DNA of 64,000 nucleotides from a phage (PZ738962.1), one strand, 5' to 3'; numbered from the stretch's first letter, positions 32,699 to 51,321 are shown. Translations and numbers: made by a program. Notes: generated from the letters alone by a model not told the origin.

Positions 32699-32704
32699 TA
32701 AACG

Positions 32705-32734
32705 AAAGGCGGGGATTATCCCCGCCTTTTTATT
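32705..32734. terminator. bidirectional terminator ggcgggga-ttat-tccccgcc with flanking A/T runs
   Basis: perfect 8 bp stem plus T5; between convergent gene 54 and the minus-strand lipoprotein gene. Confidence 0.65.
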
Positions 32735-33215
32735 TTGCTAAATCATTGCAATATTTTAGTGCCTTAGTTTGAAATTCTGCGCTGTTAAGTTCTTCATAAC
32801 GGTCATAATCACCGTTTAATGCTGCCTTTCTTGCTTCTTGCTCTATCTGCATGTCAGACATGATAATACAGCGATCCCGCGCTTTCATCTTCTCAAGTTG
32901 TATAGACTCTTCTTTCTGCTTGCGCAATTCTTCTTGACGCTTCTTTTCTTCTTGTGCTTTCTCTTCCCGCGCTTCTTTGATTGCATCCTTGAACATCTGC
33001 GTTTGTGGTGCTAAACCAACTTTAACGCGATCCACGTCTCGACGTTCCATTTTAGAAATAAAGCATGATTCGATCTGATCATCACTTGCATATGCTGCTT
33101 TACATTCACGAAGCAAGAAAACCGGATCTGATTTAGCATTCATCATAGCTTCCATGTTGGCACAACCAGTAAGCATGAATGCAGCCGCAAGACCAATCAG
33201 TTTAATCATTTTCAT
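32730..33215 (-). CDS. putative lipoprotein
   Basis: 161 aa; signal peptide with lipobox LTGC; charged K/E-rich segment; start overlaps stop of the upstream ART gene (ATGA). Confidence 0.5.
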   Translation of the reverse strand: MKMIKLIGLAAAFMLTGCANMEAMMNAKSDPVFLLRECKAAYASDDQIESCFISKMERRDVDRVKVGLAPQTQMFKDAIKEAREEKAQEEKKRQEELRKQKEESIQLEKMKARDRCIIMSDMQIEQEARKAALNGDYDRYEELNSAEFQTKALKYCNDLAK

Positions 33216-34036
33216 TTAGTCACCTCACCGAAAATTGTAAATTGTCTACGATTCTCATCGCCGAAAGATTCTACTACGTCGTTTACCTTGACGCAAGTCC
33301 CTCGCGGTAAAATTACTTCACATTCGCAAGGGTTCCATGCAATTGACCCAACAACAAAACCTTTATGATCTTTTACGTCAATTACCCATGATACATTACA
33401 AGAATGTTGCATCTTTCCGGTCATTGATTCATATCGATTCTCACAATAAAGGCTAGTGCTGTTTGATAGCCATCCTCCAAAGATGATCGGTGTCATGCTG
33501 GTAGATACAAAGTTTTTAAAGGTAAACTCCTTATCTTCAATGATACGCTCTATTGTCTGAATGTCAAGATGTTGACCTCGATAAAGAGTACCGTTTAACT
33601 TTTCGGTTTTATCCATGACACAATCCATCAAATCAACAATCTCTGATATCTCATCGGTCATGTCTTCTTCCCCTAAGAGAGCACCATTTACCCATTCGTA
33701 TTGTTCAGACACATAATCACAGATTGCATTATATTCTGCTGGGGTTATGTTGTTATGTTTGTAATGTTTGAATACATTATCTCCAAAGTCTTCGGAGTGT
33801 ACTTCATACATCACATTAATGATTTTCTTGACAAATCCATAATCTTGTGTCTCGCGCTCAAGGAAGCGGATAACCTTCACATAATCATCAAAGTTAATCT
33901 GATCGCTGATCATCTCAGTGATCATGTAACCATTAATCCCCTCAATGTCATATGTTTCGATGTAATTATCCATACGTTCCATCATTGATTCGCGTGATTC
34001 TTCTGAAAGACGAAAATCCTGTAATTTCTTGAACAT
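33212..34036 (-). CDS. Alt-like ADP-ribosyltransferase paralog
   Basis: 274 aa; TLYRGQ...FTFKNFVSTSMTPIIFGGW...CECEVILPRG parallels Alt ILYRGM...FYFKNYVSTSLAPNIFGGW...ECEILLPRG (R-S-ExE motifs). Confidence 0.6.
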   Translation of the reverse strand: MFKKLQDFRLSEESRESMMERMDNYIETYDIEGINGYMITEMISDQINFDDYVKVIRFLERETQDYGFVKKIINVMYEVHSEDFGDNVFKHYKHNNITPAEYNAICDYVSEQYEWVNGALLGEEDMTDEISEIVDLMDCVMDKTEKLNGTLYRGQHLDIQTIERIIEDKEFTFKNFVSTSMTPIIFGGWLSNSTSLYCENRYESMTGKMQHSCNVSWVIDVKDHKGFVVGSIAWNPCECEVILPRGTCVKVNDVVESFGDENRRQFTIFGEVTK

Positions 34037-34049
34037 TTTAAACCTCCCA

Positions 34050-34090
34050 TATAACAGAAAACGGGGCTAGTATAAAACTAGTCCCCGTTT
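34050..34090 (-). terminator. long hairpin after alt (minus strand)
   Basis: acggggctagt...actagtccccgt stem followed by T-rich run on the minus strand. Confidence 0.5.
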
Positions 34091-34114
34091 GAGTCAACCA
34101 TTATTTCTTAAAAA

Positions 34115-36166
34115 TTACATTTTAAATTTATCTGGCATTGCGTCTACAGATACCAGATCAGCGATAAGCTGACGTAGAGTTGCCTTATCTGCTTTCTTAC
34201 GTTCGGTTTTAGCTTCGCTAATGAAGCTGGAGAAAGACAGGTCAGAAGCAGGTTTAATAACACCTTCACGGATGAATGCATCACCGTCCGCGATCATCTC
34301 GCCAGATTCTTGTAATGCTGCCAGTTCATTTTTGTTCATAATATGTGCCTCAATGTAATAAGTTTCTTGTGAATCCGTCGATGCCGTAGCACGAGTTACC
34401 GTATCAAAGGATAACACAACACCGCGAGGAAGTAAAATCTCGCATTCTTTGTAAGCAAATGCTTTGTTACCTACTGGCAATACAGGGATGTTTTCCGCGC
34501 CAGCAATGGAGAAAGCAACATTAGCGCCACCTTCACCGCGAGAGCCAGCCATAGAATCAACACCAGCAACGGCACTAGCCACGTTTGCATTCCAGCCGCC
34601 AAAAATGTTAGGTGCAAGGGAAGTGCTCACATAGTTTTTAAAGTAAAACGCTTTTTGCTTACGTGCAGTTTCCCACATTTGCGACCGGAAGTCCATACCA
34701 CGATACAGAATAGTACCCGGATCAAGTTTAACGCCATAGTTGGAGAAGGCATTATCCAGTGCATCGCACATCTTGACCAATTCTTCTGGATCTGCGATGC
34801 CTTCAAACTCTTCCAGCTTACGGTCGGTTAGGAAGTTGTTCATATTGATGTATGCTGCATCGGCATATTCGCTCAACACAAAACCTTCCGCGCCTGGCAG
34901 ATCAAGATCAATATCTGCCATCATTTCACCCATGTTGCTAGCAATTGCTTCAAACATACCGGACGCAACATTACGTAGGGCATCGGTTTTAATCTGGGTG
35001 ATATGACTACGCAGCATTTCAGCTTTTACATCTGCTGGCATAGACTGGTCTACTCGATCCATTGCCAGGACGGTGATCTTGTTTTCGAATACTTCCTCGC
35101 TCATGATTTCTTTTAAGCGTTTGACCGAGGCTGCGATAACTTCCGCAGACAATGGATCATATTGATCCTGAACTTTTACCAGTTCGCTTACTGCGTATTT
35201 TGCATCGGCTTCGCTTTCAAAAATAGTACGCATGAAACCATAGCGAGTGATAATATCACTTGTCCAGTCATTCAGAGAACGAGCGGTTGAACGTTCTAAG
35301 GCTTGACGGTCAATCAGAGTATTAAACTGTTTCTTAGGTTCTGCTTCGGTGATATCTTCTTCCGGTTTAAGATTAATTTTTTCTGGATGATTCACATAGT
35401 CGCTGTTATAGGTCGCTTGAGTTTTCAGCATTTCTTCTTTAGTCAAACGAGATTTAGCCGCTACGCGTTGTTCTGCTTCCGCGTTTCGTTCTTCTTCTGA
35501 CACAAGACTAGCCGCATATGCCTCATCTTTAGTCAGAGATTCACCAGTAGCCTTAGATACCCAGCGATCACCTAAATCACTTTCTACTTTAGTGAACAAG
35601 GATTCATCAAGTTTAATCCCTTTAATCTTATCAATCGCCATCCCGCGACGCTTGACAACAACTAAAGCGATCTTTTTGCTGGTCATTACTTCCTGCTGGA
35701 ATACTTCAAACTTCGGTGTACGACGCACCAAACGCTCTATAACGCGCTTAACCAGTTCGGTCTTACCTTTCATGCGGGATACGTTAAAACGGAACATAAC
35801 AGCGTCTAATTGCGCTTTACGGGCTGTTTCCATAACCACATCAAAAGCACTTGACATAACTGCAATCGGGTTATCGCCTAGACCATTTTTAAGCTGTACA
35901 ATACGACCGCTTTTGTTCATTTCGCACAGTACAACATGTGCGGTCTTGTCACCCATACGAATGATTTTAGGTGTTTTGTTGGTGAAGTTACAAAGACGGA
36001 CAATCACATCTTTATCGCGTGTCTGTACTGCAAAAAGTTGTTTAGGATTCTGCTTAGGCTTTAAGCACTGTATCGGAGCAATACTGCCAAAGTTTTCTTC
36101 CTCTTCCGTCAACAGCCATTTCTCGAAAGATTCAATCATTAGATCGTCGATTTCTAAGTTAAACAT
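34115..36166 (-). CDS. alt: Alt ADP-ribosyltransferase (injected internal head protein)
   Basis: 683 aa (T4 Alt about 682); C-terminal ART motifs YRG / STS / ECEILLPRG; position after gene 54. Confidence 0.8.
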   Translation of the reverse strand: MFNLEIDDLMIESFEKWLLTEEEENFGSIAPIQCLKPKQNPKQLFAVQTRDKDVIVRLCNFTNKTPKIIRMGDKTAHVVLCEMNKSGRIVQLKNGLGDNPIAVMSSAFDVVMETARKAQLDAVMFRFNVSRMKGKTELVKRVIERLVRRTPKFEVFQQEVMTSKKIALVVVKRRGMAIDKIKGIKLDESLFTKVESDLGDRWVSKATGESLTKDEAYAASLVSEEERNAEAEQRVAAKSRLTKEEMLKTQATYNSDYVNHPEKINLKPEEDITEAEPKKQFNTLIDRQALERSTARSLNDWTSDIITRYGFMRTIFESEADAKYAVSELVKVQDQYDPLSAEVIAASVKRLKEIMSEEVFENKITVLAMDRVDQSMPADVKAEMLRSHITQIKTDALRNVASGMFEAIASNMGEMMADIDLDLPGAEGFVLSEYADAAYINMNNFLTDRKLEEFEGIADPEELVKMCDALDNAFSNYGVKLDPGTILYRGMDFRSQMWETARKQKAFYFKNYVSTSLAPNIFGGWNANVASAVAGVDSMAGSRGEGGANVAFSIAGAENIPVLPVGNKAFAYKECEILLPRGVVLSFDTVTRATASTDSQETYYIEAHIMNKNELAALQESGEMIADGDAFIREGVIKPASDLSFSSFISEAKTERKKADKATLRQLIADLVSVDAMPDKFKM

Positions 36167-36204
36167 TTTATATCCTCTAGTTGATAACCTATAAACCTAT
36201 ATTT

Positions 36205-36228
36205 ATGAAAAAGGGGCTTAACGCCCCC
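36205..36228 (-). terminator. hairpin ggggc-ttaac-gcccc plus T-run (minus strand)
   Basis: read directly; downstream of the 70 aa gene. Confidence 0.45.
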
Positions 36229-36482: not shown

Positions 36483-36511
36483 ATTATGATATACACCCTC
36501 TGTTATGTCAA
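36483..36511 (-). promoter_or_regulatory. sigma70-like early promoter (minus strand TTGACA-17-CATAAT)
   Basis: plus strand shows attatg...tgtcaa; sits about 37 nt upstream of the 70 aa gene start. Confidence 0.5.
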
Positions 36512-36517
36512 CAACTT

Positions 36518-36697
36518 TTAGAACATTTTTGAAATCAATTCTGCTTTGATTTCGCAGAGAACATCTAAAGATTTCTCGTCACCCGCTTTTGCTGCTTCTG
36601 CTTGCATTTTTGAAATGGCTTCAATGTCAGTGCAATTATAAGCCGCTTGAACTTTAGCGATTGCGATGATTGCCGATTCGATGGTTAAGTGTTTCAT
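36518..36697 (-). CDS. hypothetical small protein (59 aa, below ORF-track cutoff)
   Basis: hand-translated MKHLTIESAIIAIAKVQ...; ATG preceded by AGGAGAATCAAAC. Confidence 0.35.
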   Translation of the reverse strand: MKHLTIESAIIAIAKVQAAYNCTDIEAISKMQAEAAKAGDEKSLDVLCEIKAELISKMF

Positions 36698-36731
36698 GTT
36701 TGATTCTCCTAGTTCGTTTCGGTATGTGTGT

Positions 36732-36761
36732 ATTATAGGGGATCTCCGATCCCCCTGTCAA
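36732..36761 (-). promoter_or_regulatory. promoter-stem-loop cassette (TTGACA, palindromic GGGGGATCGGAGATCCCC spacer, TATAAT)
   Basis: consensus -35 and -10 hexamers on the minus strand with 18 nt palindromic spacer. Confidence 0.6.
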
Positions 36762-36768
36762 CAACTTT

Positions 36769-37287
36769 TTAGTTATTTTTTAATTGCTCATCTTGCAATA
36801 GGGCAATCACATGCTGGCGATGTTCTTCCGATTGAGGAACACCGAAAAAGTTTGTTTTGTAGAAATACTCTAATCGGTCTTCTCGTGTGCTCTCTTCCAT
36901 CATGATCGCGGGTAGTCCGAGATTTCGGAAACGTCGCTTTTCTGCTGACGTAAAATCACTGTAATACAACATAGAATCATCATTACCAGCAATGCTAAAC
37001 TCATCTTTCATAAAGGAGAATATTGCGTTTAAACGCTGTTTACCGTCCACGATTTCGATCTCATAGCGAGAGCCATCATCAATCTTAGCCATTGCGATAG
37101 CACCAACCGGAAAATCATTAATCAGGTTTTCGATAAACATACGTTTGTTTTCGGTGTCCCATACCAAAGGACGCTGATAATCTGGGTTCATGTTGATATA
37201 GCCATCTTCTAACCACGCCTCATAAACAGAGATGACAAAGTTTTTAGTATTGGTATAGTAACGGCGTTTAGGCGTTAAACGGTTCAT
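36769..37287 (-). CDS. DUF262 / ParB-Srx-like domain protein (stand-alone)
   Basis: ORF-track start is TTG; ATG at 37287 has AGGAGA Shine-Dalgarno and abuts the upstream stop; motifs NPDYQRPLVW and VDGKQRLNAI (DGQQR-like). Confidence 0.55.
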   Translation of the reverse strand: MNRLTPKRRYYTNTKNFVISVYEAWLEDGYINMNPDYQRPLVWDTENKRMFIENLINDFPVGAIAMAKIDDGSRYEIEIVDGKQRLNAIFSFMKDEFSIAGNDDSMLYYSDFTSAEKRRFRNLGLPAIMMEESTREDRLEYFYKTNFFGVPQSEEHRQHVIALLQDEQLKNN

Positions 37288-37288
37288 G

Positions 37289-37621
37289 TTATAGTCTCCT
37301 GAATGGATCATCACGTAAATCAATATCTTTTAAGAACTCATCCCATGAATGTCGGATATTGTTCTTAATTCTCCAGATAAGCGCAGGGATTGAACGCTCT
37401 CCCATCTGGAAGTATGGATCATATGATCCGTATGCCCAATATGCTACTACAATTCCACAATCAGCGCAATAATATTCTATTTCACTTGCTGGCGACCAAA
37501 GTCCATCAATATGATCAGTGATCTTGCTTTCGATGTTATGGCTATGACAATCAGGGCAACGGATGCAATGACCTTGTTTATCGTAATTTGACGTTAGCGA
37601 ATACTTAAACAATCTCATCAT
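37289..37621 (-). CDS. zinc-ribbon protein
   Basis: 110 aa; CIRCPDC...YYCADCG (two CxxC pairs); translationally coupled on both sides. Confidence 0.5.
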   Translation of the reverse strand: MMRLFKYSLTSNYDKQGHCIRCPDCHSHNIESKITDHIDGLWSPASEIEYYCADCGIVVAYWAYGSYDPYFQMGERSIPALIWRIKNNIRHSWDEFLKDIDLRDDPFRRL

Positions 37622-38334
37622 AGATCCTTATTTGCTTCAAATACTGCCTTTGCGAATCCTCGCGGGGTAAGTGACCTGATAGTCTTTGTTTTCGTTCCTT
37701 TCCCGCCTAGCTTAGAATGCTGTTTACTGTACCCTTTATTAATCTGCAACGGTTTCTTTTCTGGCATTATAAAGCCTTGTCCGGTCCATAAGCAAGTCTT
37801 TTTCGGGTACATATCACGGGCGGCGATATACTCAGGAAACGTAGGATGTTTATCATCTTCCGGCAAATAACCGCCATATTCCCACGGATGTAACATGTAA
37901 TCAGGCTTACGCCACATACTAGAGATAACGCTTACAGGATTCTCTATCATGTAGGGAACTCCTAGCCATTCACCCAAATAAGCGGTTATTTTAGCTGCCC
38001 GTACATCATGAACTTGAATCAATGGTCCTTGTTCTCGTTTCTTTCGTTCAAAGTGTGCAGCGCCACTAACAGCTAAATTGGTGCACGGTGGGAATGCAAA
38101 GATAATATCCGGTTTCCCCCATTCAAGGTCCATTGCTCTTTCTAGCCAGTTCAAATCAATCCATGTGTTTACATAGGTAATGTTTGGGTGTTCAAATCTG
38201 GTATTATACTTTTTGTATGTGCCGTGGTCGCCATCGTCAGCATTAAAGCAGATCACCTTATGACCTGCTTTAGCCCATTCTAGCCCCATTATCCCCGATC
38301 CGTCAAAGTTACAGAATATTAATTTTTGTTTCAT
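37618..38334 (-). CDS. minimal C5-cytosine-methyltransferase-like protein (no obvious target-recognition domain)
   Basis: 238 aa; motif I-like FCNFDGSGIMG, motif IV-like IIFAFPPCTNLAVSG (Pro-Cys), motif VI-like YMIENPVSV, motif IX-like RSLTPRGFAKAV; collinear with M.HhaI motif order (recalled). Confidence 0.45.
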   Translation of the reverse strand: MKQKLIFCNFDGSGIMGLEWAKAGHKVICFNADDGDHGTYKKYNTRFEHPNITYVNTWIDLNWLERAMDLEWGKPDIIFAFPPCTNLAVSGAAHFERKKREQGPLIQVHDVRAAKITAYLGEWLGVPYMIENPVSVISSMWRKPDYMLHPWEYGGYLPEDDKHPTFPEYIAARDMYPKKTCLWTGQGFIMPEKKPLQINKGYSKQHSKLGGKGTKTKTIRSLTPRGFAKAVFEANKDL

Positions 38335-38576
38335 ATACGCCCCTTTAATCCAACACAGATTTTAGAAGGTTCTTTGCCGTGCCACATTAAGTAAAGTCCG
38401 TTAATGCGGCCTTGTTTTGTATATGATTCTTTTCTGATCTTCTTATAGTGTCGTGCTTCCTCAACTGATTGTTTAGAATACCAATCATAAAGGAAGAGGC
38501 ACAAAGGCCAACCATTAGCGGCCTTAATGCAGTTATTAAGAAATTCCTTATTGCGTTTAATTAATTTTCTTTTCAC
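38331..38576 (-). CDS. hypothetical protein (GTG start overlapping upstream stop)
   Basis: 81 aa; 4 nt overlap (GTGA) with upstream gene. Confidence 0.35.
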   Translation of the reverse strand: MKRKLIKRNKEFLNNCIKAANGWPLCLFLYDWYSKQSVEEARHYKKIRKESYTKQGRINGLYLMWHGKEPSKICVGLKGRI

Positions 38577-38824
38577 GCTGCCCCCATTGGTTTGATAGTA
38601 ACAGAATCTAAAAGACCTTTGTTAGCCAGTTCGCGGCAAGTTTTCAGATCCGCAACTTCCCAGCCAGCCGCAATCAGGTTATCAATCAGGCTGTTAGCAA
38701 CTTCTTCGCTCATGAAAGAGCACTGTTTGCCGATGGTGTAGCGTACACGCTGTAATTTCAGTTTACGGAAGCCTTTAACGTTCAGGTCTTTAGCGATTTT
38801 CTTTGCGGTTTCGATGTTAGCCAT
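38573..38824 (-). CDS. hypothetical protein, first gene of the five-gene operon
   Basis: 83 aa; ATG with AGGAGAATCAAAC; promoter cassette about 40 nt upstream. Confidence 0.45.
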   Translation of the reverse strand: MANIETAKKIAKDLNVKGFRKLKLQRVRYTIGKQCSFMSEEVANSLIDNLIAAGWEVADLKTCRELANKGLLDSVTIKPMGAA

Positions 38825-38864
38825 TGTTTGATTCTCCTAAGTGGTATCTCGTCTTGATGGTTGT

Positions 38865-38893
38865 ATTGTAGGGGAGTTATCCTCCCCTGTCAA
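38865..38893 (-). promoter_or_regulatory. promoter-stem-loop cassette (TTGACA, GGGGAGGATAACTCCCC, TACAAT)
   Basis: palindromic 17 nt spacer between near-consensus hexamers. Confidence 0.55.
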
Positions 38894-38907
38894 CACTTTT
38901 TATAAAA

Positions 38908-39075
38908 TTATTTGTTAATTTCCGGTGCGTTGCTCGGATAGTAACCTTCTTTAACACCCAGATATTTTGCAACCATCCCTACAATCTTCTGTGCTACTAC
39001 AATGTCAAATTTCAGATAATCTTCGCCGTGGGTTTCAATGATATATGCTTCACATGCTGCTTTAGTCTCGAACAT
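38908..39075 (-). CDS. small protein (55 aa), paralog of 42193..42360
   Basis: hand-translated MFETKAACEAYIIETHGEDYLKFDIVVAQKIVGMVAKYLGVKEGYYPSNAPEINK. Confidence 0.4.
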   Translation of the reverse strand: MFETKAACEAYIIETHGEDYLKFDIVVAQKIVGMVAKYLGVKEGYYPSNAPEINK

Positions 39076-39108
39076 TTTGATTCTCCTATATCTCGTTGGT
39101 ATGTGTGC

Positions 39109-39137
39109 ATTATAGGGGATCTCCCGATCCCCGTCAA
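39109..39137 (-). promoter_or_regulatory. promoter-stem-loop cassette (TTGACG, GGGGATCGGGAGATCCCC, TATAAT)
   Basis: read directly. Confidence 0.55.
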
Positions 39138-39151
39138 CAACTTTTTTAAAA

Positions 39152-39433
39152 TTATTCGTGATTAGTTTCGATATTGTGCATTTTGCACCAGTTTAGCCAA
39201 TCACCCAGATCCTGATAGTTAATGCTTTTATCTGCTGCCATCGTTTTTGTCTTGATACCCATATGTGCGTTATGAGTAAGCATTTTTACAGTGAACTCAA
39301 TTTTATCACCTTTAGCTTTAACATCAACCAGTTTGGTCCACTGGCTACCAGCGCCGCGAATGTTCATACCAACGATGTTTCCGATGTATGCTTCTTTGTT
39401 TTTCAGGATTTCGGTTGCTTTGATGAATTTCAT
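39152..39433 (-). CDS. hypothetical protein
   Basis: 93 aa; Shine-Dalgarno plus ATG; cassette upstream. Confidence 0.45.
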   Translation of the reverse strand: MKFIKATEILKNKEAYIGNIVGMNIRGAGSQWTKLVDVKAKGDKIEFTVKMLTHNAHMGIKTKTMAADKSINYQDLGDWLNWCKMHNIETNHE

Positions 39434-39466
39434 TTTTGATTCTCCAGTTCGTTTCGGTATGGGTGT

Positions 39467-39495
39467 ATTATGCTATGTTCTTACTTTGGTGTCAA
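39467..39495 (-). promoter_or_regulatory. sigma70-like early promoter (TTGACA-17-CATAAT)
   Basis: read directly. Confidence 0.5.
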
Positions 39496-39503
39496 CAACT
39501 TTT

Positions 39504-39773
39504 TTAGATATTTTCAGAAATAAATTTTAAAACTTGACGTAAATGTTTCTCATCTTTGATAGTCGCCGGAAGTTCTTCTTTTACTTCCTGTGCAAGATAG
39601 ATATTTCCGTTCCAAGTGAAAGATCCGTCTTCGTTTACGCGATAGCTGAACATCCACTCGCAATCATTTTCGATTTCATATACACACAGAAGGGTGTAAT
39701 CGTTAAAGCTATTGATTTCAAGGTCGAAGCCGTGACGTTTTGCAAAGTTGGTAGTGGTTTTAGTCAGTGCCAT
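39504..39773 (-). CDS. hypothetical protein
   Basis: 89 aa. Confidence 0.45.
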   Translation of the reverse strand: MALTKTTTNFAKRHGFDLEINSFNDYTLLCVYEIENDCEWMFSYRVNEDGSFTWNGNIYLAQEVKEELPATIKDEKHLRQVLKFISENI

Positions 39774-39813
39774 TGTTTGATTCTCCTAAGTGGTATCTCG
39801 TTTCGATGGGTGT

Positions 39814-39842
39814 ATTATGCTATAGGCGTGATCTGGTGTCAA
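39814..39842 (-). promoter_or_regulatory. sigma70-like early promoter (TTGACA-17-CATAAT)
   Basis: read directly. Confidence 0.5.
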
Positions 39843-39863
39843 CAACTTTTTTTAATTTTTTGG

Positions 39864-39892
39864 AAATAAAAAAGCCGACACTAAGGTCGGCT
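39864..39892 (-). terminator. hairpin agccgac...gtcggct plus T-run (minus strand)
   Basis: read directly; downstream of 39900..40208. Confidence 0.5.
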
Positions 39893-39899
39893 AATAAAA

Positions 39900-40208
39900 T
39901 CATTTAGACAAGTAATCATTCTGTGCAATACGGTCGGCGTATGCTGGTGTTACGTCAATCGCAATCACTTTAACGCGTGCTTTCTTGCGACCTGGGTTTT
40001 CTCGTAACCAGTGCTCATGACCGTGAACATTTTTATACTTTGATGCTTCTTCAAATGTACGGATCGGACCTGGATAATCTGCGTAAAGGATCTCTAGGTC
40101 TTCGGTGATGTAAAAATATACATCATAATTACTGTTCTCTAGTTTAAGCAGAGACTTTCGGAACATTGGGAGATTTTCGCGGGTAAATTCAAAGATATTA
40201 TCTTTCAT
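39900..40208 (-). CDS. H-x-H-W family protein, member A
   Basis: 102 aa; YDVYFYITEDL...HGHEHW...KVIAIDV. Confidence 0.5.
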   Translation of the reverse strand: MKDNIFEFTRENLPMFRKSLLKLENSNYDVYFYITEDLEILYADYPGPIRTFEEASKYKNVHGHEHWLRENPGRKKARVKVIAIDVTPAYADRIAQNDYLSK

Positions 40209-40231
40209 AGTATTATCCTCAATAGTTTGAT

Positions 40232-40258
40232 GAAAAGGGGTGGGGCTTAACGCCCCGT
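40232..40258 (-). terminator. hairpin ggggc-ttaac-gcccc plus T-run (minus strand)
   Basis: read directly. Confidence 0.45.
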
Positions 40259-40261
40259 ATA

Positions 40262-40549
40262 TTAAAACAGTCCTTCCTGTACACCGTAGTAGAGTTCATC
40301 GCTGATAATTTCATTAATGCGACGGTGTGCATATTCCTGATTTGCGAAGTTATCAGCAAGTTCTACTTTAGTTTCTCCGTCATGAGTCCATTTAGTGATA
40401 ACTTTACCATCTGCAAATTTGAAGTTGAACTCTTTAGCTACTGCATCGCGTACCAGACGTGCGAACTTGTTATTACGGATTGCATTATCGGTTTCGTGTG
40501 CAGCGTGAGCGAATTTGTTAACTTTCAGAGTGATAGTAATGTATGCCAT
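40262..40549 (-). CDS. hypothetical protein (paralog of 43575..43886)
   Basis: 95 aa; shares VR.A.AKEFN.K motif with 43575..43886. Confidence 0.45.
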   Translation of the reverse strand: MAYITITLKVNKFAHAAHETDNAIRNNKFARLVRDAVAKEFNFKFADGKVITKWTHDGETKVELADNFANQEYAHRRINEIISDELYYGVQEGLF

Positions 40550-40595
40550 AATTTGATTCTCCTAGTTAGAAAGTGTATCTCGTTTCGATGGGTGT

Positions 40596-40624
40596 ATTAT
40601 GCTATACACCCGATCTTATGTCAA
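40596..40624 (-). promoter_or_regulatory. sigma70-like early promoter (TTGACA-17-CATAAT)
   Basis: read directly. Confidence 0.5.
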
Positions 40625-40630
40625 CACTTT

Positions 40631-40909
40631 TTATAAAATAATTTTTTGATATTTTTCTATGATGTTTGTGTAGGTCACGTCAACCGCTAGCACCGTTGCT
40701 TCGAATCCACCGTTTAGCCAATGGCTATGATCATGATCGTGAAAGAAACCAAGACCAGTACGAAGACCTTCTTTATATTCGGCGCGTACATTTAGATCAT
40801 CATCGATAAACAGATAAAACCATGAATTTTTACTAGGATTGATGATACAACCTTTCAGATTAGGGAGAATATCACGACTAAGAATAAACTTATCACCTAC
40901 TTTGAACAT
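40631..40909 (-). CDS. H-x-H-W family protein, member B
   Basis: start moved to ATG at 40909 (GAGGA Shine-Dalgarno); WFYLFIDDDL...HDHSHW...TVLAVDV. Confidence 0.5.
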   Translation of the reverse strand: MFKVGDKFILSRDILPNLKGCIINPSKNSWFYLFIDDDLNVRAEYKEGLRTGLGFFHDHDHSHWLNGGFEATVLAVDVTYTNIIEKYQKIIL

Positions 40910-40913
40910 AATA

Positions 40914-41234
40914 TTAGTCCTCATTTATAAGGTCAAACCAATTGTTTTTCGCATAATGCTTAATGCGTGCTTGATCTGCTTCCGCTGGTGATAGATTCCA
41001 TGCAACCACTACAACTTCTGACGCATCGTCATCCGTTTCTGATACCCAATGATTGTGATTCATACAGTTATTTGCGATCGAGTGAGCAAATGATTTCATC
41101 ACTGGAGACGTATAATCATAGTAACGGATTTTCAGATTTTCATCAACGTACAAATAGATCGTATAAGGTTTATATTCAGTAACCAGTAACAGACAGTTAC
41201 GCAATTCTGGGAAAATCTTTTTAGTTAATTTCAT
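40914..41234 (-). CDS. H-x-H-W family protein, member C
   Basis: start moved to ATG at 41234 (GAGGA Shine-Dalgarno, directly after upstream stop); YTIYLYVDENL...MNHNHW...VVVAWN. Confidence 0.45.
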   Translation of the reverse strand: MKLTKKIFPELRNCLLLVTEYKPYTIYLYVDENLKIRYYDYTSPVMKSFAHSIANNCMNHNHWVSETDDDASEVVVVAWNLSPAEADQARIKHYAKNNWFDLINED

Positions 41235-41235
41235 T

Positions 41236-41454
41236 TTATAATCCTCGGTCGCGGCTATAGTACACGGTACGCCATACAATTTCATGTTTCGTGTCGCTCC
41301 AGCACACGATCTCATTTACTCTTAAATCTTTGTTATCAACAAAAGATGAACATTGTGACGCTTCTTTCATCATTTTATCTGCTGTTTTCTCATCAAATAC
41401 AGCACAGATTTCTTTATACACTCGATAATCTTTGAATTGACTCTGAATACCCAT
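41236..41454 (-). CDS. hypothetical small protein (paralog of 41414..41671)
   Basis: 72 aa; shares F.EKMM..AS.C.SF with the next gene. Confidence 0.4.
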   Translation of the reverse strand: MGIQSQFKDYRVYKEICAVFDEKTADKMMKEASQCSSFVDNKDLRVNEIVCWSDTKHEIVWRTVYYSRDRGL

Positions 41455-41671
41455 AATTCACACCATTCCAACCAATTGTTTTTGAGAAAACGTTTATCCA
41501 CTGTTGAGTGTAACATGTTTCTTTCCATGATACAATACGAGTAGAATAATGGTTTTTGTTTCCAGAAAAGGACGGGCATTTTGATGCATCTTCCATCATC
41601 TTTTCGGCGAACTCTGGTGCGTATACTCGCAGGATCTGTTGATATGCTTTGTATTCTTTAAATTTGCTCAT
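41414..41671 (-). CDS. hypothetical small protein (paralog of 41236..41454)
   Basis: start moved to ATG 41671 (AAGGT Shine-Dalgarno). Confidence 0.4.
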   Translation of the reverse strand: MSKFKEYKAYQQILRVYAPEFAEKMMEDASKCPSFSGNKNHYSTRIVSWKETCYTQQWINVFSKTIGWNGVNYGYSESIQRLSSV

Positions 41672-41936
41672 AATCATTCACTACCTTATCAGCTTCTTTT
41701 GTTGTTTTTACATCAACTGCGATAACTCGTAAAGGTTCGTCATGGTTCCACCAGTGGTCATGAATATCAGCTTGTGATTTATCACCAAAGGAATCACGAA
41801 TATCATTTTTACATTTATAGCTAATGTGACCTTCATAGTCAACATAAAGGTAATTATCGAAAATCGGCGTTTTTAAGATCATACCGAAAAATCTTTCTTT
41901 GTGTGTCTTATCCAGCGTTGCAGTAATTCGCATCAT
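41658..41936 (-). CDS. H-x-H-W family protein, member D
   Basis: 92 aa; NYLYVDYEG...IHDHWW...RVIAVDV. Confidence 0.5.
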   Translation of the reverse strand: MMRITATLDKTHKERFFGMILKTPIFDNYLYVDYEGHISYKCKNDIRDSFGDKSQADIHDHWWNHDEPLRVIAVDVKTTKEADKVVNDYEQI

Positions 41937-41948
41937 AATATATTCCTC

Positions 41949-42128
41949 TTAGAAAGGGATGGTCATTTCTTGAGCTTGTACATTCTCGTTAGGATTAAAC
42001 TTCATCCAGCCGATATTGTCTACCAGCATATGCACATTTTTATCATATCCTACGTGAGTAGTCAACACTAAATGTGCTTTATCTTCAATGATGAGTTCCA
42101 TGTACTTCTGAACTTCGATAGCTTTCAT
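41949..42128 (-). CDS. hypothetical small protein (59 aa, below ORF-track cutoff)
   Basis: hand-translated MKAIEVQKYMELIIEDKAHLVL...; Shine-Dalgarno plus ATG; cassette upstream. Confidence 0.3.
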   Translation of the reverse strand: MKAIEVQKYMELIIEDKAHLVLTTHVGYDKNVHMLVDNIGWMKFNPNENVQAQEMTIPF

Positions 42129-42160
42129 TTTGATTCTCCGTTTGTTGTCTTGATGGGAGT

Positions 42161-42189
42161 ATCTTACTACTCCCTTTAATCATTGTCAA
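42161..42189 (-). promoter_or_regulatory. promoter-stem-loop cassette (TTGACA, palindromic GGGAGTAGTA spacer, TAAGAT)
   Basis: read directly; same cassette type as 51787, 52294. Confidence 0.45.
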
Positions 42190-42192
42190 CTA

Positions 42193-42360
42193 TTATTTGT
42201 TAATTTCTGGTGCGTTGCTCGGATAGTAACCTTCTTTAACACCCAGATATTTTGCGACCATTCCGGTGATCTTCTGTGCTACTACGATATCGAATTTCAG
42301 GTAATCTTCACCGTGGTTTGCTACAATGTATGCTTCGCATTCTGCTTTAGTCTGGAACAT
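42193..42360 (-). CDS. small protein (55 aa), paralog of 38908..39075
   Basis: ORF-track start 42447 runs through the promoter; ATG 42360 gives MFQTKAECEAYIVANHGEDYLKFDIVVAQK... Confidence 0.4.
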   Translation of the reverse strand: MFQTKAECEAYIVANHGEDYLKFDIVVAQKITGMVAKYLGVKEGYYPSNAPEINK

Positions 42361-42394
42361 TTTTGATTCTCCTATATCTCGTTGGTATGTGTGC

Positions 42395-42423
42395 ATTATA
42401 GGGGATCGGTGATCCCCTGTCAA
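42395..42423 (-). promoter_or_regulatory. promoter-stem-loop cassette (TTGACA, GGGGATCACCGATCCCC, TATAAT)
   Basis: perfect consensus hexamers, 17 nt palindromic spacer. Confidence 0.6.
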
Positions 42424-42430
42424 CAACTTT

Positions 42431-42739
42431 TTATTCTTCATCTTCATTTTTATCTTTATATGCGTACTTCATAAATTTGTCTGCTACTTTGTCCGCGTTT
42501 TCAGGTTCGACGTCTGACGCTAGGACAACAGCTAGTTCGGTTTTGTCGTTTCCATCATACCAATGATTATGAGTGTCGTTTTCTTCGATATAAAACGAAT
42601 CATTTGGAGTTGTGCGACAATATACGTCTAAATTCCCGTCGATATAAAAGATCCAATCCGAATACAAAATGATTGCTTTAGCCAGATTTTTATTGTCTCT
42701 TACAAAAGGTTCCGCGACAAATAGCTTAGTATGTTCCAT
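42431..42739 (-). CDS. H-x-H-W family protein, member E
   Basis: start moved to ATG 42739 (GAGGA Shine-Dalgarno); WIFYIDGNL...DTHNHW...LAVVLASDV. Confidence 0.5.
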   Translation of the reverse strand: MEHTKLFVAEPFVRDNKNLAKAIILYSDWIFYIDGNLDVYCRTTPNDSFYIEENDTHNHWYDGNDKTELAVVLASDVEPENADKVADKFMKYAYKDKNEDEE

Positions 42740-42755
42740 AGTATTTTCCTCAAAA

Positions 42756-42947
42756 TTATACAGCTTCGTAAACTTCCCAATGTCCAACACCAGCACGCTT
42801 AACGAAAAGGTTTTCTTTGATGTTATTCATAAACGTCTGGATGGATTTAATGCGGTTTGAAGGTTTCCAGTCTTCGTTGGCATTGCGTCGATACATCATA
42901 ACATTACCAGTTCGCTTATATTCAGCAACCATTTTAAGACCACACAT
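42756..42947 (-). CDS. hypothetical small protein
   Basis: 63 aa; GAGGA Shine-Dalgarno. Confidence 0.4.
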   Translation of the reverse strand: MCGLKMVAEYKRTGNVMMYRRNANEDWKPSNRIKSIQTFMNNIKENLFVKRAGVGHWEVYEAV

Positions 42948-43003
42948 AATATTATCCTCAATTTGTGGGAGAGTATTACCCTCCCGATTATTGTTATACT
43001 ACA

Positions 43004-43306
43004 TTACGCAAAATGGCGTGTCAATGCTTCTTTTGCTGTTCCGCTAAGATTCTCGATCTCTCCTGGCATAACATCAACCGCAAGAACTTCTACAACATCC
43101 TCTGATCCTAACCAGTGAGTATGACCTTTGTAGAACTTGATATCCCATTTATCGCTATCGCTAGCCCACCACACATCACCGTCGATAAAGTTGATGTAAA
43201 GCACACTACGCCACATTGAATTAATTACTTTCAATACTGCGCCTTTCATCTCTTCCACGGTGTGGTCTTCCATTTTGAAGACCTCGCCTACCTTAACTTT
43301 TGCCAT
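43004..43306 (-). CDS. H-x-H-W family protein, member F
   Basis: 100 aa; LYINFIDGDVW...KGHTHW...EVLAVDV. Confidence 0.5.
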   Translation of the reverse strand: MAKVKVGEVFKMEDHTVEEMKGAVLKVINSMWRSVLYINFIDGDVWWASDSDKWDIKFYKGHTHWLGSEDVVEVLAVDVMPGEIENLSGTAKEALTRHFA

Positions 43307-43323
43307 TTAGTCACCTCTCTTTA

Positions 43324-43503
43324 TTACATAACAATCACGCCCGCCGTTGAAAGTTGATGTTTCAACTGAGCATTTTCTGCTACCGTCAAATCAATGATTT
43401 CTTGTGACGCTGCAATCATATAGCCATTGGTGATATTGTTTTGCATCAGTTCAATGGTTTCTTCGTTGTAGCGGATTTTAGCGATGATTTCGTTGAAGTT
43501 CAT
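43324..43503 (-). CDS. hypothetical small protein (59 aa)
   Basis: ORF-track start runs into the promoter; ATG 43503 with AGGAGAATCAATT. Confidence 0.35.
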   Translation of the reverse strand: MNFNEIIAKIRYNEETIELMQNNITNGYMIAASQEIIDLTVAENAQLKHQLSTAGVIVM

Positions 43504-43537
43504 AATTGATTCTCCTAGTTCGTTTCGGTATGTGTGT

Positions 43538-43566
43538 AGTATAGGGGATCGGTGATCCCCTGTCAA
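43538..43566 (-). promoter_or_regulatory. promoter-stem-loop cassette (TTGACA, GGGGATCACCGATCCCC, TATACT)
   Basis: read directly. Confidence 0.55.
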
Positions 43567-43574
43567 CAACTTTT

Positions 43575-43886
43575 TTAAAGTTTTTCCATGATAACGGTCA
43601 TAATTACATCTTCTGCGCGAGCGGTCAGATTATCAGCGTCAGCATGTGGGCGGCTGGTTGTTACAGAGATAACACCGTTGCGCACTGGTTTGATGTTGAT
43701 ATCAAGATGATCCGCGAAACGTTCGCCAGTTACAGAATGAATTTTGGTGTTAAATTCTTTTGCCAGTGCCTTGCGAACTTCACGAATCAGGGTAGCGTTT
43801 TTCAGTTGGTTCTCCGCGCTCATGGTCTTCTGGGTGTTCATGGTTCCGTCGAAGTCAATCATTGGCAGCGTTACGATGTATTTCAT
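43575..43886 (-). CDS. hypothetical protein (paralog of 40262..40549)
   Basis: start moved to ATG 43886 (MKYIVTLPM...); shares KEFN.K motif. Confidence 0.45.
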   Translation of the reverse strand: MKYIVTLPMIDFDGTMNTQKTMSAENQLKNATLIREVRKALAKEFNTKIHSVTGERFADHLDINIKPVRNGVISVTTSRPHADADNLTARAEDVIMTVIMEKL

Positions 43887-43931
43887 TTTTGATTCTCCGT
43901 TTAAGAAAGTGTGTTTCGTTTTGATGTGTGT

Positions 43932-43960
43932 AGTATAGGGGATCACCGATCCCCTGTCAA
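43932..43960 (-). promoter_or_regulatory. promoter-stem-loop cassette (TTGACA, GGGGATCGGTGATCCCC, TATACT)
   Basis: read directly. Confidence 0.55.
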
Positions 43961-43972
43961 CAACTTTTTGAA

Positions 43973-44449
43973 TTATTTTTCTTGATGCTCGCGATCGTAC
44001 TTTTCGAAATAAAATTCTACTGGCTGGTCGTGGATTGACAGCAAGCCAAAGCGTTTAGCCGCTCGCAATCCCATATTGCGCTGAATGTACTTCTGGAAGT
44101 TCTCGCGTATACACTTACGCCAGTATTCTAAGCCCATACAGCTTTTATAAAGATTGCATTGCACACACGCCGGATTCATGTTATCAAGTATATCATGCTC
44201 CGGTTTATGCATTCCTACAACCTTATATTTCCATGATCCATCATCATTACGGGCAATTCGTCCATTTTCATCATAGACTACCTTTGAGCGTCGCAATACT
44301 GGTTTGATGTGGTCCGCGTGCCAGCGATCCCCTAGTTCCTCGCCACAATAGGCACAACGTCCACCATATTTCATTTTCAGGATCTGGCGTTGCTCTTTCT
44401 TTGACAATTTTTTAGGTTTAGGGGCTTTCGCCCCTTCATTATCACACAT
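43973..44449 (-). CDS. HNH homing endonuclease (Mob-like), free-standing upstream of ligase
   Basis: 158 aa; CAYCG...HADHIKP...N...CVQCN (HNH with zinc-binding Cys pairs); stop overlaps ligase start region. Confidence 0.65.
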   Translation of the reverse strand: MCDNEGAKAPKPKKLSKKEQRQILKMKYGGRCAYCGEELGDRWHADHIKPVLRRSKVVYDENGRIARNDDGSWKYKVVGMHKPEHDILDNMNPACVQCNLYKSCMGLEYWRKCIRENFQKYIQRNMGLRAAKRFGLLSIHDQPVEFYFEKYDREHQEK

Positions 44450-45938
44450 CGAATACCTCTTTTACTGTATTTGCAGTGGTCTTGTCGTAGCGAATACGTT
44501 TGATGATTGGGAGAAATAAAGAGAACTCCGGTTCATCTTCTTTACGTGATTTGCTGCGGATATACCCGTTGCATGTCATCTCAATGACTTTTCCAATCAG
44601 GTTATGACGGTCAGCCCATAACATTTCTCGGTCGAGTTCATTTCGACGATCGAACGGAATTACACGTTCGATACCATCATCACCTTTTTCGGTTGTAGTG
44701 TCGGTTAATCCCGATCCGGTGTTAGTCATCATTCGTCCGCACGCACTACGGACAGTAAAACCGCCTACCTTATTGGGGTCTTTACTATGCGGATATACAT
44801 CAACAATTTCCGCGTCGAAGTCAATCACTTCTTTAAATTTAACCTGATCTTTACTACGGCGATCTTCAAATACACCATGTAAATTTTTAAGGATAATACC
44901 TTCTAAGCCCATGTTGACATAACGATGATATACTTCGCGAGCTTCATCGATATTGTTAACTACAGTGTTTTCGATGATCTGAACACGAGGATCGTTAAGT
45001 TCTTCAACAATCTGTTTTAGTTCTTCGAATCGATCTTTATATTGCTTCGTTGCTTTCTCGTTTCCGTAATACACATCACGGTCGATAACATCCCAGACAG
45101 TGTAAACAATACATTGGGCTTCTTCTTTTGGAATAGTTCCTTTAAGTGATTTGTTGAGGATACCATTTCCGGTCTGACGATCTGCAACAACGGATTCTTT
45201 CACTGCTTCCGCTACTGGCGTTAATGGCATTTCCTCTTCTTCAAATATCCATGACAGAGTACCATCATAAACGCTTTCAACGAAGTTCTGCGCTGGTGTT
45301 TGAGAAAGGGTAGGCATATATACCAATTCGCCATCTAGAACAATTCCACGGCCTCGTAGACGCTCTAAAACCGCAAACAAATCATCAAGCCCTTGATAGG
45401 TATTACCTGAGCGGGTATAGATTGCTAATGTTTCCCCGTCAATATCAGCCATACCACGAGCGCCATCGCTTTTAAGTTGTGCATACGCCGGATACTTGAT
45501 ATTAGCAATCGTCTTATCAGAACATGACGATGCAAGGTGGCACGGTTGCTGGGGGATCAGTTTCTTCCATACCTTGTTTGCAGTGGTAGCGGAACAGCCG
45601 CATTCCAGATCACGATTCAGGACCATCATTGCAACTTTAGCATCATCCTCTGACAAGCAAGTCAGAGTATCGGTAACTAGTTGTAATGCTGCATTACCAG
45701 TTACTTGACGCGTGGCAAGTTTATTTTTAAAGACCTGTAATGCACCGGATAAAGACAATACAGACGAATAGCGAGACGGTTTATCGTATTTCTTTACGCC
45801 AAACGTAACCTGTTTGCAATATGCCAGATAAAAGCATTCTTTCAGCGTTTCATTGCTTGCTGATTCTTTCAGAATCTTTTCTTTCAGCGATGTTTTGTCT
45901 GTTGCTGCAAGCTGATTAATGATATTAAGAATTGACAT
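44442..45938 (-). CDS. 30: ATP-dependent DNA ligase gp30
   Basis: ORF-track start is GTG; ATG 45938 with GAGGTG Shine-Dalgarno; adenylation motif AQLKSDGAR (KxDG); collinear with recalled T4 ligase. Confidence 0.9.
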   Translation of the reverse strand: MSILNIINQLAATDKTSLKEKILKESASNETLKECFYLAYCKQVTFGVKKYDKPSRYSSVLSLSGALQVFKNKLATRQVTGNAALQLVTDTLTCLSEDDAKVAMMVLNRDLECGCSATTANKVWKKLIPQQPCHLASSCSDKTIANIKYPAYAQLKSDGARGMADIDGETLAIYTRSGNTYQGLDDLFAVLERLRGRGIVLDGELVYMPTLSQTPAQNFVESVYDGTLSWIFEEEEMPLTPVAEAVKESVVADRQTGNGILNKSLKGTIPKEEAQCIVYTVWDVIDRDVYYGNEKATKQYKDRFEELKQIVEELNDPRVQIIENTVVNNIDEAREVYHRYVNMGLEGIILKNLHGVFEDRRSKDQVKFKEVIDFDAEIVDVYPHSKDPNKVGGFTVRSACGRMMTNTGSGLTDTTTEKGDDGIERVIPFDRRNELDREMLWADRHNLIGKVIEMTCNGYIRSKSRKEDEPEFSLFLPIIKRIRYDKTTANTVKEVFDV

Positions 45939-46404
45939 TTTCACCTCGTTTTGTTAAACGTTCACGAATATCATTGAGGATACTACAAAATTCCGATTCA
46001 GTCAATATAGTCTTTAACGGATCAGTTCCACCTATACTATGACGTAATTTCTTATTTCCGGTAGCGAGTAATGCTTTACAAAATTCTGGGTTATTCCGTG
46101 CCATCGTAACAAATGCCAGATGTACCAGTCTGTAATAATGCTCACTCATTCGATGAATCGGGCGACCCTGAAAATATAACATGTGATTCTCAATCTTTTC
46201 AGTTCTTCCGGTTCTTTTTGCTTTGCCACCGTGCATCAAAAAGATTTCTCTTTGTCTCTGAGGGTTCTTAAATCTTAGCCCCTGTAAAAATCCTTCTGTG
46301 CTGTTAATATCGCAGCCAAATAAACGGAATGGTCTTTTATTGAAATTACTCAATTCACCCGATGGATAGGGTCCACCCGCATAGATATCAATTTCAGAAG
46401 TCAT
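45925..46404 (-). CDS. NADAR (YbiA-like) domain protein
   Basis: 159 aa; YAGGPYPSGELSNF...STEGFLQGLRF...EFCKALLATGNKKL parallels E. coli YbiA FYS..FSNFA...TSEHYFQAQKF...ELRALLLATAP (recalled). Confidence 0.55.
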   Translation of the reverse strand: MTSEIDIYAGGPYPSGELSNFNKRPFRLFGCDINSTEGFLQGLRFKNPQRQREIFLMHGGKAKRTGRTEKIENHMLYFQGRPIHRMSEHYYRLVHLAFVTMARNNPEFCKALLATGNKKLRHSIGGTDPLKTILTESEFCSILNDIRERLTKRGENVNS

Positions 46405-46558
46405 TGAAACTAATCTCGCTAATCAGAGAGAACGGATCATAATCGTCATTAGGAATATCGATAGTAATCGAATGAGGATTTACCCATACACCAAACTGGT
46501 CTTCTTCGGTGAATACTTCGGTATGGATTTCGTGGATGTTTACATTCATAGTTTTCAT
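46394..46558 (-). CDS. hypothetical small protein
   Basis: ORF-track start is TTG; ATG at 46558 with AAGGA. Confidence 0.3.
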   Translation of the reverse strand: MKTMNVNIHEIHTEVFTEEDQFGVWVNPHSITIDIPNDDYDPFSLISEISFNDF

Positions 46559-46599
46559 AATAAATTCCTTAATAATCAATAACTTACAAAATCATATAG

Positions 46600-46628
46600 C
46601 CAAAATATAGGCGGGATTATTTCCCGCC
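46600..46628 (-). terminator. hairpin ggcggga-ttattt-tcccgcc downstream of gene 31 (minus strand)
   Basis: read directly. Confidence 0.45.
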
Positions 46629-46639
46629 GTTTAAAATCA

Positions 46640-46963: not shown

Positions 46964-47004
46964 AATTTTATTACCTCTTCAAATCAATACAGTTTAATGA
47001 TGAA

Positions 47005-47818: not shown

Positions 47819-47839
47819 AATATAATCCTCACATATTAA

Positions 47840-49693: not shown

Positions 49694-49702
49694 ATTACCC
49701 CC

Positions 49703-49731: not shown

Positions 49732-49737
49732 TTATTA

Positions 49738-51304: not shown

Positions 51305-51321
51305 TATCCTTTCCTCACGTC

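Follow-up and report, generated by a model that had tools for sequence, protein, structure and literature searches.

Host takeover by protein modification in phage T4 is textbook material and involves three ADP-ribosyltransferases (ARTs): Alt, a member of the Alt/VIP2 family (Pfam PF03496) that is packaged in the head and modifies RNA polymerase, and the early-expressed ModA and ModB, small stand-alone R-S-ExE transferases of about 200 aa made after infection from early promoters. Judging from gene comparisons, the region around alt is especially prone to duplication. In T4, alt.-1 and alt.-2 duplicate Alt residues 1-117; Aeromonas phage 44RR has three Alt-like genes, of which the paralogs ORF187c and ORF188c lack the catalytic motifs; and Moonvirus NM4.3 carries two full-length tandem alt genes followed by DUF5498 (T4 Alt.-3). 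Nolan et al. 2006 listed RB49ORF183c of phage RB49 together with 44RRORF188c and T4 alt.-1/alt.-2 as paralogous alt duplications (PMC1524935), and RB49/phi1 genomes are also the source of the PeSL cassettes, sigma-70 early promoters with the -10 box inside a terminator hairpin (Arbiol et al. 2010; Comeau et al. 2014). Here we analysed this locus in a 64,000-nucleotide stretch of phage DNA (PZ738962.1; hereafter the window), in which alt is followed by the gene for a 274-aa Alt-like ADP-ribosyltransferase, named ART2 here and identical to RB49p183, and by the gene for a 161-aa lipoprotein.

The window belongs to a Krischvirus, an RB49/Phi1-type relative of T4. Compared with 59 phage records, the 3.9-kb region shows 95-100% DNA identity, and both ART2 and the 161-aa lipoprotein are identical to proteins of RB49-type records. 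Three open reading frames (ORFs) lie on the minus strand, alt, the 274-aa ORF and the 161-aa ORF, with coordinates matching those of a first-pass annotation of the same DNA, which had described them as one ADP-ribosyltransferase cluster. We favor a different arrangement of two separately regulated units, a late alt and an early, PeSL-driven unit of ART2 and an exclusion-type lipoprotein, and put the probability of this explanation as a whole at roughly 0.55. The features on which it is built are the following.

34115..36166, minus strand: alt, a full-length Alt ortholog and R-S-ExE ADP-ribosyltransferase of 683 aa, identified from PHROG 802, Pfam PF03496, identity to T4 Alt and position.
33212..34036, minus strand: ART2 (RB49p183), the 274-aa paralog with the catalytic half of Alt, identified from Pfam, PHROG, alignments, a structural model and the ratio of nonsynonymous to synonymous divergence (dN/dS).
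32730..33215, minus strand: the 161-aa lipoprotein precursor (RB49p182), which has a lipobox and is annotated in W115 as 'putative lipoprotein'.
33215-33162, minus strand: signal peptide and lipobox of the lipoprotein (codons 1-18), followed by a mature part modeled as all-helical with four conserved cysteines.
32733..33182, minus strand: an exchangeable cassette that comprises the coding region of the mature lipoprotein (codon 12, approximately, through the stop), replaced by ~30% identical alleles in otherwise 95-100% identical phages and coinciding with a jump in synonymous divergence (dS) in lineage L024.
34059..34097, minus strand: a predicted PeSL-type composite element between alt and ART2, terminator for alt and early sigma-70 promoter for ART2 and the lipoprotein.
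36212..36228, minus strand: a hairpin terminator, GGGGGCGTTAAGCCCC, with a T-run, closing the upstream early genes just before alt, found by scan and sequence.
36200..36207, minus strand: a putative motif of late-promoter type, CATAAATA, located ~34 nt before the alt ATG, found by sequence.
32704..32730, both strands: a bidirectional hairpin terminator common to the lipoprotein gene and the convergent gene 54, with a 12-bp stem of which 7 pairs are GC.

The 683-aa gene retains the full-length Alt architecture (~680 aa including the N-terminal ~330-aa region). It matches PHROG 802 (E=1e-178) and Pfam PF03496 (E=2e-9, 37.4 bits), is 27% identical to T4 Alt across 695 aligned positions (E=1e-60) and adjoins gene 54 as in T4. 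ART2, in contrast, aligns only with positions 330-602 of PHROG 802, the Alt family profile of 674 positions; it lacks both the N-terminal ~330 aa of Alt and the C-terminal tail, and is 31% identical to T4 Alt over 181 aa (residues 413-593 of T4 Alt, E=9e-23). The R-S-ExE signature that the first-pass annotation had seen in both proteins is indeed common to them, as LYR489G, S512-T-S514 and E574-C-E576-ILLPRG in Alt and as LYR153G, S178-T-S180 and E238-C-E240-VILPRG in ART2, although the string ECE(V/I)LLPRG by which it was described is slightly off, the paralog reading ECEVILPRG. In the alignment with T4 Alt, ModA and ModB that had been proposed as a check, run here with MAFFT, R153, STS and ExE of ART2 line up with LYRS, STS and EME of T4 Alt.

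Searches, modeling and comparison across lineages agree in presenting ART2 as a genuine ART-fold protein whose active site is intact. Far beyond chance, it matches Pfam PF03496 (ADPrib_exo_Tox) with E=4e-16 and 59.3 bits against a cutoff of 23.4, and PHROG 15144 ('ADP-ribosyltransferase') with E=3e-198. A Foldseek search of its AlphaFold (AF2) model (pLDDT 81.8, pTM 0.79) against PDB returned Vis, Certhrax, C3bot, CDTa and iota Ia (E ~1e-10, probability 1.0). Five lineages of metagenomic relatives, whose ART2 is only 31-45% identical, all retain the R, STS and ExE residues unchanged, and pairwise dN/dS values of 0.03-0.05 indicate strong purifying selection. Very probably, as the first-pass annotation had proposed, ART2 is a second active R-S-ExE ADP-ribosyltransferase, a prediction for which the family match, the residues kept in five lineages, the modeled fold and the purifying selection all argue.

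Given the history of the locus, ART2 might also be an inactive, decaying remnant of an alt duplication, comparable to the N-terminal copies in T4 and the motif-less 187c and 188c of 44RR. The retention of every catalytic residue at the divergence and dN/dS just given speaks against this, as does an ORF that is intact (264-288 aa) in every relative found and preceded by a good Shine-Dalgarno sequence, and we regard decay as very improbable indeed. Moreover, neighbor-joining on the catalytic region places the ART2 proteins together in a single clade, to which no full-length Alt belongs, and ART2 is therefore an old, maintained gene rather than a fresh duplicate. As a second active transferase ART2 is well supported, yet this much is already in the literature and annotations: besides the paralog listing of 2006 (PMC1524935), which the first-pass annotation had missed, the RB49 RefSeq note on RB49p183 reads 'similar to C-terminal part of T4 Alt protein', and several phage records annotate the protein as 'ADP-ribosyltransferase'. 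What we add is the predicted early/late split of the two ART genes by a conserved PeSL, the ancient and monophyletic status of ART2, and a phage-only orphan lipoprotein that is swapped as an ORF-sized cassette.

Compared with the other known alt duplicates, ART2 is likewise a tandem duplicate at the same locus, but it preserves the complementary half of the protein. T4 keeps N-terminal fragments only and the 44RR copies are motif-less, whereas in ART2 the catalytic half is intact, and the protein makes up a conserved family of its own (PHROG 15144). Across T4-like phages, the slot between alt and gene 54 is filled by copies of the N-terminal 117 residues of Alt plus DUF5498 (alt.-3) in T4, by the catalytic half plus the lipoprotein in Krischvirus, and by full-length extra copies of alt in 44RR and Moonvirus.

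With the Mod enzymes, ART2 would share its mode of production, that of a small stand-alone transferase made after infection from an early promoter. By descent it differs from them: ART2 derives from Alt, and BLAST gave no significant similarity between ART2 and ModA or ModB. RB49 has a separate ModB-like gene, RB49p014, located next to srd; it matches with E=1e-7 to 9e-10 and keeps the YRG and E-R-E motifs. By tblastn, no ModA homolog was found in the whole RB49 genome. On these sequence comparisons the RB49 genome has three ARTs, as T4 does, but a different set: Alt, ART2 and one ModB-like protein. The idea that ART2 replaces the Mod enzymes is thus only partly right, ModA alone being absent.

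The regulatory sequences around the two transferase genes differ in type. Upstream of alt, the hairpin terminator, listed by Nolan 2006 as 'alt<--RB49ORF185c' (Additional file 6), is followed by the late-type motif, and the same succession at the same relative position is seen in the window (CATAAATA), in T4 (TATAAATA) and in the metagenomic relative L017 (TCTAAATA); the first T of RB49 late promoters is poorly conserved (PMC1524935). Hairpin and motif fit late expression of alt as in T4, and the 683-aa protein would then, by analogy with T4, be packaged in the head and injected. No late-promoter motif of the TATAAATA type, with up to one mismatch, was found on the minus strand between 33061 and 36199, so that none lies directly upstream of ART2.

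Instead, the intergenic region between alt and ART2 consists of an AT-rich stop region, -35 and -10 boxes, a hairpin, a T-run, a Shine-Dalgarno sequence and the ATG. The -35 box TTGACT (34097-34092) is separated by a 17-nt spacer from the -10 box TATACT (34074-34069), and a hairpin (34090-34059; fold -22.9 kcal/mol, z=-2.3) overlaps the -10 box and is followed by TTTTCTGTT. Nolan 2006 independently predicted an early promoter, Pe:112388, at this junction, and the TB34 annotation marks a terminator at the same site. The same -35 box, 17-nt spacer and -10 box with a hairpin of covarying stem recur in L013, L016 and L017/L018, with better boxes (TTGACA) and, in L017, a different stem sequence. 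The element matches the definition of PeSL, for other copies of which promoter and terminator activities have been shown experimentally (PMC2839356). It has every component of the RB49/phi1 cassettes, but this copy is weaker and less canonical (TTGACT/TATACT), lacks the conserved leader of the main family and sits at the border of the late structural module. In the portions of Arbiol et al. 2010 and Comeau et al. 2014 available to us, the element was not found named.

This architecture points to an early bicistronic unit of ART2 and the lipoprotein that is insulated from alt. The PeSL element would end alt transcription and at the same time start the early message; transcripts that begin after the -10 box lack the 5' arm of the hairpin and would therefore not terminate there. 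Since the early unit is, as we infer, insulated from alt, ART2 would be made de novo early in infection rather than packaged. It is an ancient duplicate of the helical-linker and catalytic domains of Alt with the whole R-S-ExE site kept, most likely an arginine-specific mono-ADP-ribosyltransferase, and would act like ModA/ModB on host transcription or translation proteins, though of Alt lineage by descent.

The opposite arrangement, in which ART2 is a second head-packaged and injected transferase, would require late read-through of a leaky alt terminator, targeting to the prohead and trimming by gp21 at an N-terminal L-x-E. The ART2 gene does lie directly after a late gene and beside late structural genes, and its predicted early promoter is weak. 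Its N-terminus, MFKKLQDFRLSE, has L-S-E at its end and bears a loose resemblance to MKTYQEFIAE, the capsid-targeting sequence of T4. The concept of capsid-targeting sequences is set out in PMC9958956, and Alt/VIP2 ARTs in T4-like contexts have been argued to be often packaged (PMC9503650). However, the N-termini of ART2 differ between lineages, which weakens the reading of …RLSE as a capsid-targeting or gp21 site; ART2 also lacks the N-terminal ~330 aa of Alt, a strong hairpin with a T-run stands between the two genes, and the sigma-70 promoter is kept at the same place in divergent lineages. Packaging of ART2 is, on balance, unlikely, and we found no Krischvirus virion proteome in the literature that mentions the protein. 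In the PHROG scan, ART2 additionally gave a weak match to PHROG 595, 'head maturation protease' (E=3e-5), which fits published reports of fusions between head proteins and ARTs. The match likely comes from family members fused to an ART domain and is not evidence for packaging of ART2.

Two further observations concern promoters. Within the ART2 coding sequence, a near-consensus sigma-70 match (33540-33567, minus strand; TTGACA, 16 nt, TATCAT; 11 of 12 positions) may in principle drive the lipoprotein alone, or may be chance. In addition, about 20 repeated early-promoter modules occur on the minus strand of the early region of the window, 36483-55000, and match published RB49/phi1 PeSL elements. 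Their common form is AAAAGTTGTTGACA, a GC-rich hairpin in the spacer or over the -10 box, TATAAT and the leader CACACATACCGAAAC, with a local fold of -11 to -14 kcal/mol. Examples are given in the next line.

36761-36732, 36511-36483, 38893, 39137, 40624, 42423, 43566, 43960, 51815-52322 and 54866, minus strand: PeSL-like copies.

The second gene of the proposed early unit begins within the first. The TGA stop of ART2 (33214-33212) overlaps the ATG of the lipoprotein gene (33215-33213) as ATGA, as had been claimed, with GAGGTG 5 nt upstream. This first ATG is the real start, because the lipoprotein of the relative JK32 begins MKIIK. At the other end, the hairpin shared with gene 54 is listed by Nolan 2006 as '54-><-RB49ORF182c', and alt, ART2 and the lipoprotein gene together converge on the late baseplate genes 29, 48 and 54. 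The signal sequence comprises a positive n-region (MKMIK), a core (LIGLAAAFM), the lipobox LTGC18, already recognized in the first-pass annotation, and Ala19 at +2; all alleles carry the lipobox as L[TNVF]GC followed by A or S. A regular-expression scan of the whole RB49 genome returned this protein as the sole ORF with a clear lipobox. We consider the 161-aa ORF a convincing lipoprotein on its signal features and, owing to Ala at +2 in a textbook signal, predict outer-membrane sorting.

The model of the mature protein is all-helical (pLDDT 87), and includes a 62-residue helix (72-133) with many E, K and R residues. Besides four cysteines (38, 51, 116, 156), the family conserves an R/K-D…G motif and G-[DN]-Y. 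When 1.84 billion representative proteins were searched with a profile, only 12 family members were recovered; the alignments used for structure prediction and for this search left out two rows from GenBank loci. Every recovered locus has a T4-like phage context: alt, short ART, lipoprotein, and convergent gp54, gp48 and gp29. Neither PLSDB plasmids nor 185,579 GTDB genomes, the latter examined by pattern scan, contained a match. The family thus appears, from these searches and the model, as a tiny, phage-only, all-helical orphan. The protein would be Lol-sorted to the outer membrane, facing the periplasm, as a disulfide-stapled helical protein with a long charged helix. We also compared it with T4 Alt.-3 (DUF5498), which occupies the same slot, and found no similarity. 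A spanin role was rejected: the protein has no C-terminal hydrophobic segment, its neighbors are ART2 and gene 54, and the pseT.2/pseT.3 spanins are encoded elsewhere in RB49.

Comparison of close relatives revealed that the lipoprotein is exchanged as a cassette. In eight Krischvirus records, the lipoprotein alleles are 28-33% identical to that of the window while ART2 is 98-100% identical, and we distinguish alleles A (RB49), B (E26) and C (Whisky/JK32). Against phage E26, DNA identity falls to ~45% solely within the region encoding the mature lipoprotein and is 95-100% on either side of it; in Whisky and JK32, divergence reaches further, into genes 54, 48 and 29. In L024, a lineage with an ~83% allele, dS is 0.2-0.3 in alt and ART2 versus 0.8-1.3 in the lipoprotein, gp54, gp48 and gp29. 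Recombination has thus broken repeatedly at the ART2/lipoprotein junction, within the conserved signal-peptide DNA. The lipoprotein matches gp54, gp48 and gp29, not ART2, in its level of divergence in three of four cases (L024, L026 and Whisky/JK32). With a mean pairwise dN/dS of ~0.10, the lipoprotein is evidently functional. Positive selection was rejected, as this value is purifying, and the diversity stems from cassette exchange rather than rapid divergence in place.

These patterns bear on the further possibility that ART2 and the lipoprotein form a functional pair, as toxin and protector or in envelope-directed ADP-ribosylation, with translational coupling setting their stoichiometry. 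ART2 precedes the lipoprotein in all recovered lineages (L012, L013, L015-L018, L024 and L026), most of which have an ATGA or 8-nt overlap, and the lipoprotein is never seen without an upstream ART2. The first-pass annotation had called the overlap an unusual pairing and a pointer to an envelope-associated function, a suggestion that our results do not support in that form; we saw no tie between the transferase itself and the envelope. Overlaps are commonplace in the genome, with 22 of 72 same-strand neighboring pairs overlapping, six of them by 4 nt, in the RB49 region 78-128 kb that is equivalent to most of the window; among relatives the two genes overlap by as much as 8 nt or stand as much as 11 nt apart, and the overlap is lost in L013 and L015. 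The lipoprotein is exported, whereas ART2 has no signal peptide and NAD+ is cytoplasmic. Alt paralogs without a lipoprotein exist (44RR, Moonvirus), and since T4-like phages tend to keep their gene order, adjacency by itself is little evidence. The lipoprotein is exchanged independently of ART2, with ~30% identical alleles beside a nearly invariant enzyme, dS jumps at the junction and a lipoprotein that travels with gp54, gp48 and gp29, which argues against a co-adapted pair. We find a functional pair quite improbable; under the two-unit arrangement, ART2 and the lipoprotein probably share timing but not a joint mechanism.

As to what the lipoprotein does, our best guess, made by analogy, is superinfection exclusion or an envelope change against other phages; most likely it would modify the infected-cell envelope so as to exclude superinfecting phages or block their entry. 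Three points support the guess: the protein is probably co-expressed early, it varies among closely related phages, and RB49 has no detectable Imm or Sp, since tblastn of the whole genome returned no homolog of T4 Imm and, for T4 Sp, a single match (E=0.05) inside gene 41 that looks spurious. Krischviruses may use other proteins for superinfection immunity. With T5 Llp, phi80/N15 Cor, Ltp of Streptococcus phage TP-J34 and T4 Imm/Sp, the candidate has in common that it is a phage-encoded, probably early, exported lipoprotein in a lytic phage and varies between close relatives. It differs from them in lacking sequence or fold similarity, a PHROG match to Cor covering the signal peptide only, and its alleles do not track the phage's own gp37/gp38. 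We tentatively raise a bolder version as well, namely that the lipoprotein is a new T4-like class of exclusion or entry-blocking protein that replaces the missing Imm/Sp and is swapped as an ORF-sized cassette, via signal-peptide DNA and terminator anchors, to escape or impose exclusion among co-circulating relatives, with ART2 as an Alt-derived early transferase filling the role of the missing ModA.

Other envelope roles can be imagined for such a protein: an Lpp-like tether between outer membrane and peptidoglycan or a periplasm spacer, an accessory in lysis timing, or a blocker of progeny adsorption to debris. The 62-residue, E/K/R-rich helix would suit a tether, and most family members end in Lys, the C-terminal residue of Braun's lipoprotein, although Asn takes this position in two alleles. 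That the allele fails to follow the receptor-binding proteins is in keeping with such roles, but RB49 already has spanins (pseT.2, pseT.3) and rI. Taken together, we consider these alternatives doubtful and retain exclusion as the preferred role.

Several observations weigh against the two-unit explanation and its exclusion component. In a receptor-masking version of exclusion, the lipoprotein allele was compared with the gp37 tip and the gp38 adhesin, and no co-variation appeared: both gp38 adhesin types are found with each of the alleles A, B and C, as are gp37 tips that differ widely, those of the eight allele B/C phages being 47-93% identical to RB49 (all eight are in the gp37-tip table; gp38 was typed in seven, G37-3 not being among the rows listed). 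The average dN/dS of the lipoprotein is purifying rather than diversifying, and no relative of known function was found by sequence or fold, including in comparisons with Llp and Cor. The genes for ART2 and the lipoprotein adjoin each other in all lineages found, and a functional link is possible. The Mod analogy for ART2 rests on timing, with no sequence similarity to ModA/ModB. Lastly, Nolan's score for the alt/ART2 promoter is weak, 9.3 versus 33-39 for neighboring promoters, so late read-through from alt could matter for ART2, and lineage L015 retains only a -35 box within a 26-nt alt/ART2 gap.

If the two-unit explanation is right, a well-sampled genus of therapeutic phages would have arrived at a different solution to host modification from that of T4, with Alt packaged, a second enzyme derived from Alt and made early, and one Mod. 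ART2 is an easily testable candidate for the evolution of target choice after duplication. The small lipoprotein, cheap to test, could be a new envelope-level factor in conflict between phages in Krischviruses, which are used in phage cocktails, where exclusion between members would matter in practice. Current concepts are unchanged, and the enzyme paralog was already annotated and published.

Neighboring genes and database records yielded some minor observations. A 184-aa ORF (RB49p187; 36769-37323, minus strand) matches DUF262, the domain at the N-terminus of type IV restriction enzymes of the GmrSD kind (Pfam PF03235, E=4e-20), and lacks the C-terminal nuclease domain; such a phage-encoded half of a modification-dependent restriction enzyme could be a decoy or inhibitor. 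A 238-aa ORF (37618-38334, minus strand) is annotated in relatives (RB49p189, TB34) as a DNA (C-5 cytosine) methyltransferase and had no Pfam match at E<=0.01, and the adjoining 110-aa ORF (37289-37621) gave a weak zinc-ribbon match. Finally, the 87-kb record OK283618.1, 'Listeria phage LPML1', shows 49% identity to the RB49 gp37 tail-fiber tip over 93% of the query, which is odd for a phage of a Gram-positive host, and the record may be mislabeled or chimeric.

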